From the IMG/VR virus record IMGVR_UViG_2700989274_000003: a stretch of DNA of 13,408 nucleotides; one strand, given 5' to 3'. Origin of the DNA: a virus. Its lineage: Duplodnaviria > Heunggongvirae > Uroviricota > Caudoviricetes. The notes below the pieces were generated by a model. It saw nothing but the letters and a program-made list of their open reading frames with translations, was not told the DNA's origin and did no database searches. Positions 4,751 to 12,469 of this stretch are shown here, one piece after another (the first letter of the stretch is position 1; the number at the start of each line of letters is the position of its first letter). Both the position numbers and the translations under genes were made by a program.

Positions 4751-4793
4751 AAAAAGGGCGGCAGAGCAGTCACGGAGTAAAACTGATACCGCC
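4751..4793 (-). terminator. Possible intrinsic terminator on minus strand (GC stem GGCGG/CCGCC, long loop, U5 tail)
   Basis: Minus strand reads GGCGG-(26 nt)-GCCGCCC-TTTTT. The loop is unusually long, so this is weak. Confidence 0.2.
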
Positions 4794-5148
4794 AAACGTC
4801 ACCAGAAAATTGATAACAGAGGGCGTTGCAGCGGGGTTGTCACTTAAGCGTATGGTCAACCTGACAACCCGGTGTCCTCAACGGGGAAGAAATAACCCCG
4901 CCATACTTACCGCCGCACCATTTCGCGGGTTGCCACAACCGGAAGCGCACGGTCGACGAAAATTTAACGACAGGCTATCTATGAACCAGCTACCTCGCCG
5001 TGCGCTTTCGCGTTATGGTCTGACTTTTCAGGGAAATATCCTTTCAGTAAACTGTCAGTGCCGGATGCTCACCCGTGTCCGGCGCACGCACTCCACCTCA
5101 CCCGTGGAGAACTCCTTAATTACCAACCTTAGCTTCGTTGGTTAGCTA

Positions 5149-5974: not shown

Positions 5975-6613
5975 TTAAATATCTTGTTGAATTTTAAAGC
6001 ATACGCCCAATATGCAAGATAGATCATCCAGCATAATTGAAGGGTAGCGAGGATTCGTGGGGACTAAAAGAATATCCGGCCCTTCTATCTCCAGTTTACG
6101 AATGACAGGTGTTGTGGTCCCTTTGGGTAAGGCAAGGACAATATTTCCTGGTTGTACGGTTCGATCGGGATCAACAAAAACTGTTGAACCATTTGGGATG
6201 GAAACTCCCCCACCAGATGTTGACATACTGTCACTCTCTAGAACAACTGCAAAGGTATTGACCGGGATTTCTCCGACAAGCTGCACACAAGAGGTTATTG
6301 AGGAATTTTTCATATAATCACTCCAGCTTGCTGCCTGCTGAAGTGATAGTAGCGGAACCGTTTTTATCGGCGGTAAAGATAGATCAAGCGAATCACCTGT
6401 ATTTAACTCTCCTCCATTAAGAAGCCAATTTTCGTTTACTTTCAATATTTTTGCCAGTGAACTTATGTAACGCGAGGACGGCGCTCCTCCACCGTTCATC
6501 CATTGACTTACGGAGCCTTTTGATGCGCCAGTGCCATTGACAAGGTCTTTGCCTTTCAGGTTTAGCGCATGCATACGTTGGGTTATGCGTTCAGATATAG
6601 TTTGCTTGCTCAT
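5975..6613 (-). CDS. cI: cI-like prophage repressor (N-terminal HTH, C-terminal S24 LexA-like autopeptidase domain)
   Basis: 212-aa ORF. N-terminus has an HTH-like segment (GASKGSVSQWMNGG). C-terminus has S24 signatures: Ser in VVLESDSMS and Lys in PVIRKL. Divergent from the cro-like gene. No SD upstream; -10 TAAAAT (plus 6620-6625) sits 7 nt from the ATG, suggesting a leaderless PRM-type transcript. Confidence 0.88.
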   Translation of the reverse strand: MSKQTISERITQRMHALNLKGKDLVNGTGASKGSVSQWMNGGGAPSSRYISSLAKILKVNENWLLNGGELNTGDSLDLSLPPIKTVPLLSLQQAASWSDYMKNSSITSCVQLVGEIPVNTFAVVLESDSMSTSGGGVSIPNGSTVFVDPDRTVQPGNIVLALPKGTTTPVIRKLEIEGPDILLVPTNPRYPSIMLDDLSCILGVCFKIQQDI

Positions 6614-6704
6614 GTTTTGATTTTAAAACACAGATGGTTTTGTTTCTTGACTTTCTTTGGTTTTGATTATTAAACTTTTGACGTTCAGTTTTATGGAGCG
6701 ACTC
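6614..6704. promoter_or_regulatory. Immunity-region divergent promoter/operator segment (OR-like) between cI and cro-like genes
   Basis: 91-bp intergenic region. Repeated GTTTTGATT-type motifs at 6614-6622 and 6659-6669, and TTTTGA at 6676-6681. Candidate PR -35 TTGACT at 6647-6652. Candidate PRM -10 TAAAAT on the minus strand at 6620-6625. Confidence 0.45.
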
Positions 6705-6935
6705 ATGAAAAAATCAGAAGTATTAGGCTATTTTGGCGGAGTTGTTAAAACAGCCGCAGCTCTAGGAACGTCAAAAACCACAGTCAGCATGTGGGGGGAA
6801 GAGGTTCCGTGGAAATGGGCGTTGCTAATTCAGGCAGTCACTGCCGGGGCGCTCAAATATGAGTTACACATACCGACGGTTGTCATTCCCGGTTCTGATC
6901 ATAATCCGCCTTCTAACCAAGGGGGGGATTCATGA
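6705..6935 (+). CDS. Cro/YdaS-like HTH regulator
   Basis: ATG 6705 with GGAG SD 6 nt upstream. HTH-like GGVVKTAAALGTSKTTVSMWGE resembles the Cro/YdaS family. Divergent from cI. Stop overlaps the next gene's ATG as ATGA. Confidence 0.78.
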   Translation: MKKSEVLGYFGGVVKTAAALGTSKTTVSMWGEEVPWKWALLIQAVTAGALKYELHIPTVVIPGSDHNPPSNQGGDS

Positions 6936-7357
6936 AAATCAAGCATGAACACATCCGCATGGCGATGAATGCCTGGGCGCATCCGGACGGCGAAAAAGTA
7001 CCGGCTGCGAAAATTACCAAAGCGTATTTCGAGCTGGGAATGACGTTCCCGGAACTGTATGACGACAGCCATCCGGAAGCCCTGGCTCGCAATACCCAGA
7101 AAATTTTCCGCTGGGTAGAGAAAGACACCCCTGATGCAGTTGAAAAAATTCAGGCGTTGTTACCAGCGATCGAAAAGGCAATGCCACCTTTGCTGGTGGC
7201 CAGAATGCGCAGCCACAGTTCAGCTTATTTTCGGGAGCTGGTGGAGACGCGGGAGCGACTGGTGAGAGACGCTGATGATTTTGTCGCAGTGGCAATCGCC
7301 GGTTTCAATCAGATGAACCGTGGTGGCCCGGCAGGAAATGCTGTGGCAGTACATTGA
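6932..7357 (+). CDS. YdaT-like (CII-analogue) regulatory protein
   Basis: 141-aa ORF translationally coupled to the cro-like gene, in the position of cII/ydaT. The N-terminus MKIKHEHI... is recalled from the Rac YdaT family, from memory only. Confidence 0.6.
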   Translation: MKIKHEHIRMAMNAWAHPDGEKVPAAKITKAYFELGMTFPELYDDSHPEALARNTQKIFRWVEKDTPDAVEKIQALLPAIEKAMPPLLVARMRSHSSAYFRELVETRERLVRDADDFVAVAIAGFNQMNRGGPAGNAVAVH

Positions 7358-7428
7358 CTGACAATAGCCATATCGAATCGCTTCCGGCAACTCGTGAGTA
7401 AAAAGATTCGGTATCAGAAGAGGTGAGT

Positions 7429-8499
7429 ATGGCTAACGCCTGGCTCAGATTATGGCATGACATGCCAAATGACCCTAAGTGGCGAACAATTGCCAGGGTG
7501 TCAGGGCAGCCAATTGCAACAGTGATGGCAGTGTATATCCACCTCCTGGTGAGCGCGTCACGAAATGTCACGCGAGGTCACATTGATGTCACGACAGAAG
7601 ATTTGGCAAGTGCGCTCGACGTGACAGAAGAGGTAATTGATTCAATTTTGCAGACGATGCAGGGGCGGGTACTTGATGGTGATTTAATCACTGGATGGGA
7701 AAAACGCCAGGTGCTGAAAGAGGACAACGGCAATATTTCGCAAACCGCAAAATCTCCGGCAGAGCGCAAGAGGGCGCAGCGAGAGAGGGAAAGAAAGCGG
7801 GAACAAAATGGCGATTGTCACGGCGCGTCACGAAATGTCACGCACATGTCACGACGAGTCACGACAGATAAAGATACAGATAAAGATACAGATCAAGAAG
7901 ATCAAAACACTATGGTCCATGGCGTAAAAAACGCCACGAACCAGGCAGGGGATGTTCAGACCGTCAATCCTGGTCAGCCAGCAGGCACGACACCGGAAGC
8001 CGATTCAGCGTATGCGCTGAAAGCCGATTCGGGCGCTGTGCAGCAGGTGATGACCCCAAGGCCGGAGCAATCACACCAACTGCAGCAGCCTGAAGCCGAT
8101 TCCGCCATTCAGCGGGAAGCCGATCGGGTAGTCCCGGAAAACACCGGGCTGTCTGTGGGACGAGTGGATTATCCGGATGTGTTCGAACAGGTCTGGCGGG
8201 AGTACCCGTTGCGTGCCGGAGCAAACCCGAAGAAATCCGCTTTCAGTGCCTGGAAGGCCAGATTACGCGAGGGGGTGCCACCAGAGGCCATGCTGGATGG
8301 CGTGAGGCGTTACGCAAGATACTTGGCGGCTACCGGGAAAACGGGAACGGAATTTGTTCAGCGAGCGACGACGTTTTTTGGACCGGACCGGAATTTTGAG
8401 AACCCCTGGTTGCTCCCGGTAAGCGGCACGAACAACCAGCGTTGTGTGAATCATATTTCTGAACCGGATACCGAAATTCCACCGGGCTTCAGGGGGTAA
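7429..8499 (+). CDS. Phage replication initiation protein (O-like), containing intragenic origin iterons
   Basis: ORF 7423..8499; ATG 7429 (MANAWLRLW...) is preceded by GAGGTG SD. It occupies the O-gene position after cro/cII-like genes and carries iteron arrays plus an AT-rich tract internally, as lambda O carries ori-lambda. The central linker is low-complexity (EADS repeats, KRAQRERERKRE). Confidence 0.7.
   Translation: MANAWLRLWHDMPNDPKWRTIARVSGQPIATVMAVYIHLLVSASRNVTRGHIDVTTEDLASALDVTEEVIDSILQTMQGRVLDGDLITGWEKRQVLKEDNGNISQTAKSPAERKRAQRERERKREQNGDCHGASRNVTHMSRRVTTDKDTDKDTDQEDQNTMVHGVKNATNQAGDVQTVNPGQPAGTTPEADSAYALKADSGAVQQVMTPRPEQSHQLQQPEADSAIQREADRVVPENTGLSVGRVDYPDVFEQVWREYPLRAGANPKKSAFSAWKARLREGVPPEAMLDGVRRYARYLAATGKTGTEFVQRATTFFGPDRNFENPWLLPVSGTNNQRCVNHISEPDTEIPPGFRG
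7553..7593. repeat. Iteron cluster 1: four GTCAC(G/A) repeats phased at 10-11 bp
   Basis: GTCACG at 7557, 7567 and 7588, and GTCACA at 7577. A 21-bp segment GCGCGTCACGAAATGTCACGC (7553-7573) is identical to 7824-7844. Confidence 0.6.
7817..7910. repeat. Iteron cluster 2 (five GTCACG repeats at 10-11 bp phasing) followed by AT-rich tract with 12-bp tandem duplication; putative replication origin
   Basis: GTCACG at 7817, 7827, 7837, 7848 and 7858. This is followed by GATAAAGATACA x2 (7867-7890) and the A/T-rich GATCAAGAAGATCAAAACAC. The iteron-then-AT-rich layout matches lambda-type ori. Confidence 0.6.
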
Positions 8500-8539
8500 G
8501 TGTTGATTTCTGGTCATGAGGTAATTTTCAGGAGGGCTT

Positions 8540-8962
8540 GTGGCAAAAGTTTTTACACAAGAAGAGCGAGAAAAAATTAAAGGGCAGGTTGTTGAACTCG
8601 TACGCCAGAGTGGGCGTGAGACGTTACGGCAACTGGAAGTCAAGACAGGTGCGACAAGATATCTGATGAGCGTTCTCGCAAGAGAGCTGGTTGCCAGCGG
8701 CGATGTATACAACTCCGGCTACGGGTTATTCCCCTCTGAACAGGCGCGTAAGGACTGGCAAAACGCCCGCAAAAAACTCTCGAGGGCAAAGGTGAAGAAA
8801 CCTGCTGTGGTTGATCCGGACCTTATCTGGTCATCACCTGACGGAGAAATACGTCGCTACGACAGTCGCCTAAACATAATCTGTCGCGAGTGCCGGAAGA
8901 GTGAAGCTATGCAGCGTGTACTGGCTTTCTATCAGGGTAATTTTCAGGAGGCGGTACTGTGA
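8540..8962 (+). CDS. Hypothetical protein (140 aa)
   Basis: GTG start 8540 with AGGAGG SD (8530-8535). The 16-bp RBS segment GGTAATTTTCAGGAGG is repeated exactly before the next gene. No family recognised. Confidence 0.6.
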   Translation: MAKVFTQEEREKIKGQVVELVRQSGRETLRQLEVKTGATRYLMSVLARELVASGDVYNSGYGLFPSEQARKDWQNARKKLSRAKVKKPAVVDPDLIWSSPDGEIRRYDSRLNIICRECRKSEAMQRVLAFYQGNFQEAVL

Positions 8963-9376
8963 GTGAAATTAGCTATCAGGCTTCAATTACCGCTGGCATT
9001 CGCATCAAAGGAGAGGAGCATGGAAATAAAACCAGAGGATGAGTTAAGCAATATCGTTTTATTTCCGGTAAAAGAGGATGACCCTCGTAATCAGGTTAAT
9101 TTTCTTTATGAGCCATCGGAAAGACCATATTGTCATCACGCCTCTGTCCGGGTTGACGAAAAAGAGCGTCAGGTCCGCTGTAAAATCTGCGGTGCAGTTG
9201 TGGAGCCATTTGACTGGATGCTCTCTGTGGCGAAAAGAGAAACCAGACTGGCAGATGATGTAAGGCTCTTGCGTCAGGAGGAGCGGGAAAGGCGAAAAAA
9301 TATAGAAAAGCTAATTCAGATTGAGCGTAACGCGAAAGCGCGGATACGCAGGGCGACAAAATCCAGAACTGAATAA
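8963..9376 (+). CDS. Hypothetical protein with CHH...CxxC putative zinc-binding motif and C-terminal basic coiled coil (alternative start ATG 9020)
   Basis: ORF 8963..9376. GTG 8963 follows the repeated AGGAGG segment; ATG 9020 has a strong GGAGAGGAG SD. Motif YCHHASVRVDEKERQVRCKICG, then LLRQEERERRKNIEKLIQIERNAKARIRR. Confidence 0.6.
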   Translation: MKLAIRLQLPLAFASKERSMEIKPEDELSNIVLFPVKEDDPRNQVNFLYEPSERPYCHHASVRVDEKERQVRCKICGAVVEPFDWMLSVAKRETRLADDVRLLRQEERERRKNIEKLIQIERNAKARIRRATKSRTE

Positions 9377-9469
9377 TTAAATTTAGCTCTGTTAAAAATT
9401 TAATCCTTAACCGGAGGGATTTCTGCACCCTCAGAACATCAGGAGGCCGCCCGAAAGGGCGGTAGTTAA

Positions 9470-10134: not shown

Positions 10135-10230
10135 GCTACCTGGCGCAGAACGGGCTGATAAGTATGGGGAATGTTTTACGATGAATATTTAGACTAAAGA
10201 GTTTGTAACGCTATGTAAGTGATTTTTTCT

Positions 10231-10258
10231 GGTTTAGATATTTATATGTCCGGCCAAA
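10231..10258. repeat. Imperfect direct repeat copy 1 (GGTTTAG..ATATTTA..TGTCCGG..CAAA) upstream of the small membrane-protein gene
   Basis: Roughly 80% identical to 10502-10533 by eye, with indels. The two copies bracket the 59-aa gene. Confidence 0.4.
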
Positions 10259-10304: not shown

Positions 10305-10484
10305 ATGAAAAACGCATTGCAGTTTTTGTTTGTTGCGTTCTGGTTGTTCGTATCATGTATGCCCATCATCTTCACAGCAAGGTATATGGAAAAAGTTGAT
10401 GTTTTGATATTAATATTTGGATATATAAATGCCCTTTTTTTAGGGGTGTTCATGGCGGTCATGTGCATTGAATACTGGCGGTAA
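10305..10484 (+). CDS. Small hydrophobic protein, two predicted TM helices (59 aa), in AT-rich island
   Basis: ATG 10305 with AGGAGG SD (10295-10300). Product MKNALQFLFVAFWLFVSCMPIIFTARYMEKVDVLILIFGYINALFLGVFMAVMCIEYWR. Surrounding DNA (about 10140-10560) is markedly AT-rich. ORF track start 10266 has no RBS. Confidence 0.55.
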   Translation: MKNALQFLFVAFWLFVSCMPIIFTARYMEKVDVLILIFGYINALFLGVFMAVMCIEYWR

Positions 10485-10567: not shown

Positions 10568-10629
10568 GACTGCGGGTGCTTGAGGCTATCTGTCTCAGGC
10601 ATGAACACCAAAAGGCAGATAGAGAAAAG

Positions 10630-10694
10630 CCCCAGTTAACATTACGCGTCCTGCAAGACGCTTAACATTAATCTGAGGCCATATCTATGCGACA
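10630..10694 (-). ncRNA. sok: Predicted Sok-like antisense RNA (coordinates approximate)
   Basis: Minus-strand sigma70-like promoter: -35 TTGACC (plus 10724-10729), 16-bp spacer, -10 GCTAAT (plus 10702-10707). The transcript would be antisense to the mok SD (GAGG 10675-10678) and start codon (10687). The 3' end is not defined; no clean terminator was found by eye. Confidence 0.3.
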
Positions 10695-10746
10695 CATAGA
10701 GATTAGCCTCTTACGGACCGAAAGGTCAAGGAGAAGCAGGCTATGA
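10687..10746 (+). CDS. mok: mok-like upstream reading frame (19 codons) translationally coupled to hok
   Basis: ATG 10687 with GAGG SD 8 nt upstream. Stop TGA at 10744-10746 overlaps the hok ATG 10743-10745 (ATGA). Much shorter than R1 mok. Confidence 0.4.
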   Translation: MRHIEISLLRTERSRRSRL

Positions 10747-12459: not shown

Positions 12460-12469
12460 NNNNNNNNNN
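12460..12469. other. Run of 10 N (assembly or scaffold gap of unknown true length)
   Basis: nnnnnnnnnn in the sequence. The flanks differ sharply in GC content and gene content. Confidence 0.99.

Follow-up and report, generated by a model that had tools for sequence, protein, structure and literature searches.

Positions 7553-7943 of the DNA considered here, a window of 13,408 nucleotides (nt) from IMG/VR virus record IMGVR_UViG_2700989274_000003 that as a whole represents the early region of a Rac/Qin-like lambdoid Escherichia coli prophage, very probably constitute the vegetative replication origin of that prophage, located inside the coding sequence of its own initiator protein. An earlier reading made from the sequence alone (hereafter, the original prediction) had proposed an origin at this place, in the manner of ori-lambda inside gene O, and the comparative evidence presented below strongly supports the proposal. 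The element comprises two arrays of short iterons, the second of which runs into an A/T-rich tract and a palindrome. These features, with coordinates referring to the whole window and lengths in base pairs (bp) or amino acids (aa), are as follows.

7429-8499, plus strand: replication initiator gene, 356 aa (open reading frame, translation, PHROG match)
7553-7596, plus strand: array 1, four direct GTCAC(G/A) cores at 7557, 7567, 7577 (GTCACA) and 7588
7620-7625, minus strand: inverted core GTCACG, 32 bp past the last array-1 copy, in codons D64-V65-T66
7813-7863, plus strand: array 2, five direct GTCACG cores at 7817, 7827, 7837, 7848 and 7858
7553-7573 and 7823-7843, plus strand: the 21-mer GCGCGTCACGAAATGTCACGC (two iterons plus spacer), with exactly two occurrences
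7864-7910, plus strand: putative DNA-unwinding element, 70% A+T, 72% purine on the top strand
7913-7943: imperfect 31-bp palindrome TGGTCCATGGCGT-AAAAA-ACGCCACGAACCA, directly past the A/T tract
8449-8496: DnaT-like C-terminal tail of the initiator (aa 340-356)

Successive cores are spaced by 10, 10 and 11 bp in array 1 and by 10, 10, 11 and 10 bp in array 2, and the arrays lie 260 bp apart start to start, with a gap of ~230 bp. The original prediction had correctly described nine phased GTCAC(G/A) copies in two clusters, 260 bp apart and sharing an identical 21-mer; it had missed the inverted tenth core and the palindrome, and the 12-bp tandem repeat that it placed past the second cluster, together with the A/T-rich tract, proves to extend to 2.9 copies (ACAGATAAAGAT, 7864-7898; Tandem Repeats Finder and a repeat search), with a GATAMA hexamer periodicity. 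Counted over the whole window and both strands, the core hexamer is unremarkable (16 occurrences vs 11.5 expected); nine same-strand cores fall within 310 bp, the maximum being four in 2000 first-order Markov simulations of the window. The arrays are translated as SASRNVTRGHIDVTT and GASRNVTHMSRRVTT, the repeated SRNVT/VTT-type peptides already recognized in the original prediction. The core copies of the window make use of all three reading frames (xxG TCA CGx, GTC ACG and xGT CAC Gxx, encoding S-R, V-T and x-H), and the iteron period is not a multiple of 3. Array 1 corresponds to codons 43-55, whereas array 2 and the A/T tract correspond to codons 130-160, in a predicted disordered linker.

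The comparative evidence comes from homologous genes. A protein search returned 1504 relatives, full-length homologues were aligned at 46-99% identity, and DNA was compared for six aligned homologues and 51 further loci (one genome per species). The N-terminal domain is encoded by 43 of the compared genes, whose hosts include Enterobacterales, Pseudomonas, Bordetella, Castellaniella, Acidovorax, Aquitalea, Chromobacterium, Gilvimarinus, Marinobacter and Sphingomonas and whose loci range in G+C content (GC) from 0.33 to 0.70; because homologues are phylogenetically non-independent, all p-values given here are indicative only. Two arrays are present at the same gene positions in 38 of these 43 genes, which come from beta- and gammaproteobacteria. 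In most of them, array 1 lies at gene nt 129, 139, 149 and 160, where the core is held in 24-26 of 29 GTCAC-class homologues, and array 2 at gene nt ~360-490, with 2-6 copies; across the 38 genes, successive cores are separated by 10 bp in 142 cases and by 11 bp in 45. The last array-2 copy always adjoins a (GATAAA/GATACA/GATAAG)n tract, including in Castellaniella and Pseudothauera loci of 66-70% GC. The cores fall into three classes that differ by one or two bases, GTCACG (29 genes), GTAACG(C) (6 genes) and GAACGC (3 genes), and the class is always identical in both arrays of one gene. The inverted copy ('gacGTGACa') is conserved across the GTCAC class. Both repeat sites are rich in insertions and deletions in the alignment, the peptide motifs at the two sites change together, and copies are gained in steps of 21 bp, equal to two iterons or seven codons, as exemplified by locus L008 with 6 and 6 copies. 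We also considered whether the 21-mer common to the two arrays of the window reflects general array-to-array gene conversion, and rejected it: the longest common substring has a median length of 10 within genes and 9 between genes (p=0.024 without phylogenetic correction), and long array-to-array identity is confined to a few lineages, the 21-mer being a feature of the E. coli/Salmonella lineage.

The conservation of the arrays can be assigned to the DNA level by a codon test. In the 29 GTCAC-class genes, at columns of the N-terminal domain where the amino acid is conserved, eight core-overlapping codons of 4- or 6-fold degeneracy were compared with 34 other conserved codons. The eight codons and their most frequent forms are listed here.

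A43: GCG in 26 of 29
S44: TCA in 26 of 28
V47: GTC in 28 of 28
T48: ACG in 27 of 28
G50: GGT in 28 of 28
V54: GTC in 28 of 28
T55: ACG in 26 of 28
V65 (inverted copy): GTG in 25 of the 25 homologues with Val there

Codon entropy is 0-0.57 bits in these core codons and 1.32-2.43 bits in the 34 others, so that the two distributions do not overlap (Mann-Whitney p=7e-6), and the frozen codons hold over hosts of ~33-70% GC. By comparison, the spacer codon R49 is unconstrained (CGA, CGT or CGC), and codons drift where the first core has been lost (L014 and L016). The same 29 genes are obtained when the class is picked on array 2 alone, and the array-1 codon test is thus not circular. Across iteron classes, on the other hand, the encoded peptides are wholly different (e.g. 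NVTRGHxDVT, GVTLRNVTVT and NATERGRTQN), and iteron-less members carry a loop of equal length, SEERGxVxIx (AS-xSEERGxxxIx). Frozen synonymous sites in combination with class-switching peptides therefore argue that selection keeps the DNA motif and its helical phasing and that the peptide follows. The original prediction had held that conservation of the peptide without conservation of the DNA repeat phasing would speak against an origin; the opposite was found, the DNA core, the phasing and the synonymous sites all being conserved.

The arrays also behave as part of a module. Both arrays and the A/T tract are kept by relatives that join the same N-terminal domain to other C-terminal modules, one of them the DnaT-like single-stranded DNA (ssDNA)-binding domain PF17948 of O157 prophages; immediately past the tract their sequence diverges. 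Shigella phage 75/02 Stx has the C-terminal half in common with the window (82% DNA identity from position 8021 onward) and keeps a purine-rich tract and the palindrome, combined with a different N-terminal domain and no GTCAC arrays. Flanking genes vary among the homologues, with YdaS, YdaT and Cro types represented and DnaC-like, P-like, DUF977 or other genes downstream, and despite these varied flanks the arrays track only the N-terminal module of the initiator. Such co-inheritance is expected if the N-terminal domain reads the arrays, and it parallels the specificity module formed by lambda O and ori-lambda. In the ydaU gene of the K-12 Rac prophage, which encodes a third type of initiator, an A/T tract of the window's type, AATAAAGATACAGATAAAGATC, occurs in nearly identical form, there preceded by the gene's own RRTGTTCAA repeats, which are followed by AATAAAGATACAGATAAAGATCTAAAAACAGATCC. 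An active origin, oriJ, has been reported for the Rac prophage (PMC3945230); we infer that oriJ may coincide with the ydaU repeats. These loci suggest a general design for such prophages in which repeats specific to an N-terminal domain are followed by a shared type of A/T tract and then by an exchangeable C-terminal domain.

As for the sequences beyond array 2, the least stable 40-step stretch of the initiator gene lies in the A/T tract, at -44.7 kcal/mol against a gene mean of -58.9 (standard deviation (sd) 3.8), which is 3.7 sd from that mean and makes it the 4th least stable locus in the 13.4-kb window; the less stable stretches are at 9371-9411, 10211-10251 and 10390-10430. Two GATC (Dam) sites lie inside the tract (7891-7894 and 7900-7903), and AGATCTAAAA is present at the equivalent place in many enterobacterial homologues and not in non-enteric ones, a distribution that suggests possible control of the origin by Dam and SeqA. 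In lambda the A/T tract is purine-skewed and followed by a palindrome. The palindrome of the window emerged from a terminator scan, which scored it as terminator-like on the minus strand with 13 pairs; as ssDNA it folds at -8.7 kcal/mol on the plus strand (z -3.9) and -10.9 kcal/mol on the minus strand (z -4.5). It is retained in L003-L006, L060 and phage 75/02, and in the Salmonella homologue L007 (4477-4512) the frame and the inner stem are altered, yet a perfect 10-bp palindrome remains (z -5.6); covariation is thin, as the comparison comprises only seven distinct sequences. The palindrome is tied to the middle and C-terminal module, not to the whole family. A GC-rich hairpin past the A/T tract in every member was considered, since many loci seem to have one on inspection by eye, and rejected: the best 40-nt fold within 120 nt downstream was like that of random places (median control fraction 0.475), and our claim for the palindrome is therefore limited to the sub-family that has the middle module of the window. 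A search of IMG/VR for further palindromes with the pattern CATGGCGNAAAAANNCGCCA gave 9 matches, all in unrelated contexts.

A different element, CCCCCC-N3-5-CCCCCC(N)GGGGG, recurs past the A/T tract in L015, L019, L021, L023, L029, L032 and L033 and also in K-12 Rac ydaU (L002 3633-3660); loci of the L015 type carry another C-terminal module. Either a coding motif (P-P-L-x-P-P-R-G) or an element of the DNA may be behind it, and the hairpin control described above lends no significance to a hairpin there.

The protein encoded by 7429-8499 matches phrog_3729, 'replication initiation protein', in PHROGs (E=1.7e-256) and also the 'replisome organizer' families 4880 (E=6e-6) and 5968 (E=2e-4), while its N-terminal half matches 'DnaD-like helicase loader' families in addition; the RefSeq/NCBI label for the gene product is 'phage replisome organizer protein'. 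It lacks an ATPase domain. The whole protein gave nothing against Pfam at E<=0.01. Weak matches to PF09681 and TIGR01714 (Phage_rep_org_N) are colinear, with aa 5-123 of the initiator lying on profile positions 1-119 of 121; such a match is given by 11 of 29 members of the family, and the initiator may be a distant relative of the Phage_rep_org_N 'replisome organizer' family. Three other affiliations were rejected. The lambda O family (Phage_rep_O) has no homology to this protein, its profile being absent at E<=1 among 29 N-terminal domains, and the name 'DNA replication protein O' used by some GenBank records refers to function alone. K-12 Rac YdaU (DUF1376) is aligned by BLASTP only over the last 19 aa and a low-complexity linker. 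The comparison with ori-lambda drawn in the original prediction holds as an analogy of layout; the gene is homologous to neither lambda O nor K-12 YdaU. Homology to DnaT does not extend beyond the tail, where aa 333-356 match DnaT positions 156-179; phage records annotated as 'primosomal protein I' owe that name to the tail. Its last 21 aa (VNHISEPDTEIPPGFRG) are nearly identical to the extreme C-terminus of E. coli DnaT (VNTVSEPDSQIPPGFRG; PDB 2ru8, 6aep and 9zbt_D), and the tail of K-12 Rac YdaU, VNTVSLPDSAIPPGFRG, also matches that of the initiator. A DnaT-like tail is thus common to several unrelated prophage initiators, presumably to reach the same host partner, and the resemblance in sequence hints at a partner shared in this way.

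In an AlphaFold2 model built from a 15-sequence alignment, helices are predicted with confidence at aa 2-45 and 56-77, on either side of a low-confidence loop (aa 46-55), and a short hairpin comes next; a basic helix at aa 110-127 leads into a long disordered linker, which extends over aa 128-246, and then comes the C-terminal domain. On this model the N-terminal domain (aa 1-~95) is helical and probably of winged-helix type, and array 1 would fall on its inter-helix loop because codons 43-55 overlap the low-confidence segment. The top Foldseek matches, all non-significant, are winged-helix regulators, and a profile search against PDB sequences found no match.

Several points weigh against the assignment of 7553-7943 as an origin read by this protein. 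The family relationship is below threshold, both for PF09681 (16.6 bits vs a cutoff of 23.3, E=0.0081) and for TIGR01714 (15.4 vs 49.8, E=0.016); the AlphaFold2 model is weak overall (mean predicted local distance difference test score 50); and Foldseek against PDB found nothing significant (best E=1.3). That the initiator binds GTCACG is itself a step that we infer. Residues K114 and Q117 of the basic helix (aa 110-121, window 7756-7791, upstream of array 2) track the iteron class, being K/Q in the GTCACG class, A or V with Y, F or S in the GTAACG class and A/W in the GAACGC class; the exception is L031, which combines GTCACG iterons with an A/Y helix. No residue outside the iteron-encoded loop segregates perfectly with class, and the classes might accordingly represent tolerated drift plus homogenisation instead of changed specificity. 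In five members (L035, L037, L042, L043 and L053) array 1 cannot be recognised and array 2 is vestigial at best, so that the N-terminal domain can exist without arrays and some relatives may initiate elsewhere. DnaA boxes with one mismatch or fewer are absent from 7400-8400, with one at 8445 on the minus strand, and their count across the window is at chance; DnaA boxes are not required at such a site, although with their absence one classical hallmark fewer is present. Finally, initiator-mediated looping between the arrays, suggested in the original prediction, is speculation without comparative support because the arrays keep no fixed helical phase relative to each other: among homologues, the final core of array 1 and the opening core of array 2 are separated by 19 distinct distances of 145-319 bp, and a Rayleigh test for a common inter-array phase was not significant (p ~0.09 at a period of 10.33, 0.16 at 10.5).

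Other readings of the arrays must be set against the origin. The arrays could form a control locus bound by the initiator, acting in autoregulation, titration or handcuffing, for example as a roadblock to transcription within the initiator's own gene, with strand opening and replisome loading elsewhere in the phage. Array 1 would suit such a role, lying ~230 bp from the A/T tract in a region that encodes a folded domain and having no adjacent unwinding element, and so would the existence of family members without arrays and of three less stable A/T stretches elsewhere in the window; plasmid systems such as P1 incA maintain extra iteron arrays purely for control. For the element as a whole we nevertheless regard this as improbable, since array 2 always ends at the (GATAAA)n tract, against composition even at 66-70% GC, since the order of iterons, A/T tract and palindrome is that of characterised origins, and since the same A/T tract follows different repeats in Rac ydaU; moreover, the other A/T-rich stretches of the window are intergenic or accessory and are unlinked to the initiator gene in homologues. 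For array 1 alone, a control function may apply.

Less probable still is that the repeats serve a different protein, as a partition centromere, a terminase pac site or an array for a transcription factor of host or phage. Short repeats phased at 10-11 bp in two arrays would also fit plasmid centromeres, R1 parC being composed of repeats of this type, but no par or segregation genes were seen beside the gene, both the window and its relatives belong to prophages that integrate and encode an integrase, the terminase genes of these phages are far away, and the arrays follow the N-terminal module of the initiator while the flanking regulators differ. The least credible reading, to which we attach almost no weight, is that the repeats are a by-product of coding, arising from a need for SRNVT/VT peptides or from slippage, and have no function as DNA. 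The array-1 loop does appear to be a genuine part of the protein, having the same length and an 'RG' motif in iteron-less members, and the A/T tract is read as D-K/D-T repeats in most homologues; against this stand the iteron synonymous sites, frozen over 33-70% GC while other conserved codons vary, the use of three reading frames at a 10-11 bp period, the retention of the DNA architecture through class-specific changes of peptide, and the location of array 2 in a predicted disordered linker.

If 7553-7943 is indeed the origin, its operation can be outlined by analogy with ori-lambda (PMC7466680) and SPP1 oriL (PMC6316719) as binding by the initiator, melting of the A/T tract and recruitment of the helicase. 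The winged-helix-like N-terminal domain would bind the 6-bp cores, (T)GTCACG, and, with one core per helical turn, bound protomers would line up along one side of the double helix. From array 2, the complex would then destabilise the adjoining purine-rich (GATAMA)n tract, where the strands would open, and the C-terminal domain with its DnaT-like tail would recruit the host helicase machinery. Array 1, with four direct copies and one inverted copy located 230-260 bp upstream, would probably raise occupancy or cooperativity or else serve autoregulation or origin control; cooperative loading, autoregulation and control are equally consistent with the data. Because pR-type transcription crosses array 1 and array 2 alike, it is probably linked to the activity of the origin, as it is in lambda. 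We also entertain, as an unlikely elaboration, that the two arrays are a single self-referential device, in which the initiator, bound to sites within the codons of its own loop (array 1) and linker (array 2), bridges or wraps the ~230 bp encoding its own DNA-binding domain. Firing would then depend in cis on the transcription and translation of the gene: a polymerase crossing array 1 would clear or remodel the complex, and an occupied array 1 would throttle initiator synthesis. In a stronger version of this idea, only one segment of the protein, the loop encoded by array 1, is obliged to change with the iteron class, which means that the iterons may encode part of the specificity of their own reader; if this is true, one DNA change alters site and reader together.

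The genes and other elements that surround the initiator gene in the window are listed below.

5975-6613, minus strand: S24 repressor
6657-6935: Cro-like gene
6932-7357: YdaT-like gene
8540-8962: DUF977/Ren-like gene, after the initiator gene
4756-4807, minus strand: DicF antisense RNA (76.7 bits)
10574-10745, plus strand: sok antitoxin RNA of a hok/sok locus (106.7 bits)

A zinc-ribbon open reading frame is also found downstream of the initiator (window 8500-9400). No gene for a DnaC-like or lambda-P-like loader or a helicase follows the initiator in the window, and in phage Tritos, likewise, the initiator is the sole replication gene between cro and Q, with no loader or helicase gene after it; in homologues from other hosts, the slot after the initiator is occupied by IstB/DnaC-like genes (L003-L005) or a lambda-P-like gene (L006). 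The E. coli version presumably relies on host DnaC. The presence of DicF and sok fits a prophage of the Qin/Rac type, Rfam gave no match in the origin region, and a run of 10 N at 12460-12469 marks a scaffold gap or a masked stretch.

The region is widespread. Positions 7300-8600 are 98-99% identical to the isolated phages Tritos, 204576, vB_EcoS-640R1 and Evi, and the initiator gene is present at 97-100% identity in isolated, viable phages (Tritos, Evi, vB_EcoS-640R1 and others). Of 5426 complete E. coli genomes, 1646 contain at least 80% of the 1.3-kb region, and related N-terminal domains are carried by O157 prophages and by those of Pseudomonas, Bordetella, Serratia, Yersinia and Salmonella. 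One E. coli variant of the initiator (P0020), 302 aa long and present in 4 contigs, one of them a 5.1-Mb chromosome, has aa 134-222 deleted; with them go the greater part of array 2, the whole A/T tract and the palindrome, so that the variant looks like a cryptic prophage copy that has lost its ori.

A defined origin for these phages would let prophage induction and copy number be modelled, would explain superinfection or incompatibility between co-resident Rac-like prophages, and would provide a compact one-protein replicon for vectors. The family further represents a natural experiment in dual coding, in which codons of a protein loop are fixed by a requirement for DNA binding, and a case of initiator-iteron co-evolution, with three core variants that are always homogenised across arrays. 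The literature that we searched, including the paper on 'Eru' replication types of Shiga toxin (Stx) phages, contains no description of this origin, and the phages that carry the N-terminal domain are recent genome records.

Iteron origins inside initiator genes are established for P22 and for the lactococcal phages TP901-1 and Tuc2009. A close parallel in layout is ori-lambda and its counterparts in Stx phages, where the origin likewise lies in the middle of the initiator gene, with direct repeats followed by a one-sided A/T tract and a copy number that varies among relatives (4 vs 6 iterons there), and where the iterons and the N-terminal domain form a specificity module, the C-terminal domain for the host or loader is swappable, and transcription of the pR operon passes through the origin (PMC7466680). 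In lambda the repeats are bound by the N-terminal part of the gene's own product (PMC7466680), whereas here such binding is predicted. The differences are equally clear: lambda iterons are ~19 bp long, internally symmetric and contiguous, in contrast to an asymmetric 6-bp core present once per turn, and the element described here has two arrays ~230 bp apart, one of them over the codons of the DNA-binding domain itself, no sequence homology to O and no P-like loader gene next in the window.

Phage SPP1 offers a second comparison, as its oriL lies in gene 38, whose product (gp38/G38P) is a replisome organizer, and comprises direct repeats and an A/T unwinding element within the protein's own gene, while a second, separate repeat set, oriR, is bound there by the same protein (PMC6316719). 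The oriR locus, however, is ~13 kb away, intergenic and furnished with its own A/T tract, whereas array 1 is ~230 bp away, in the same gene and without one; SPP1 also belongs to phages of Firmicutes hosts and has its own loader and helicase, and the similarity of the initiators is sub-threshold (PF09681, E=0.008). The origins of staphylococcal pathogenicity islands (SaPIs) resemble the present element in having penta- or hexanucleotide iterons in two sets and an A/T region, the iterons being read there by a winged-helix domain (PMC9371898). The SaPI iterons, on the other hand, come after rep and are oppositely oriented on the two sides of the A/T region, and Rep is itself a helicase, whereas here both arrays are direct and lie on one side of the A/T tract, inside the gene.

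K-12 Rac ydaU occupies the same slot after genes of the ydaS/ydaT type and has in-gene repeats, the AATAAAGATACAGATAAAGATC tract and a DnaT-like tail; it differs in its unrelated N-terminal domain (DUF1376), in the irregular spacing of its RRTGTTCAA repeats, in the lack of an upstream array and in being followed by the DnaC-like ydaV. In phage P4, one initiator acts on short octamer iterons in two cis-acting clusters, ori and crr; these clusters are separated by ~4.5 kb and lie outside the region encoding the DNA-binding domain of the initiator, the alpha protein, which is a primase-helicase. Iteron origins that have an unwinding element and lie within the initiator gene are therefore a known kind, represented by lambda and Stx phages and by SPP1 oriL; what distinguishes the present element is the combination of an initiator at most remotely related to Phage_rep_org_N, a 6-bp asymmetric core, split arrays, overlap with a loop of the protein and three homogenised core variants.

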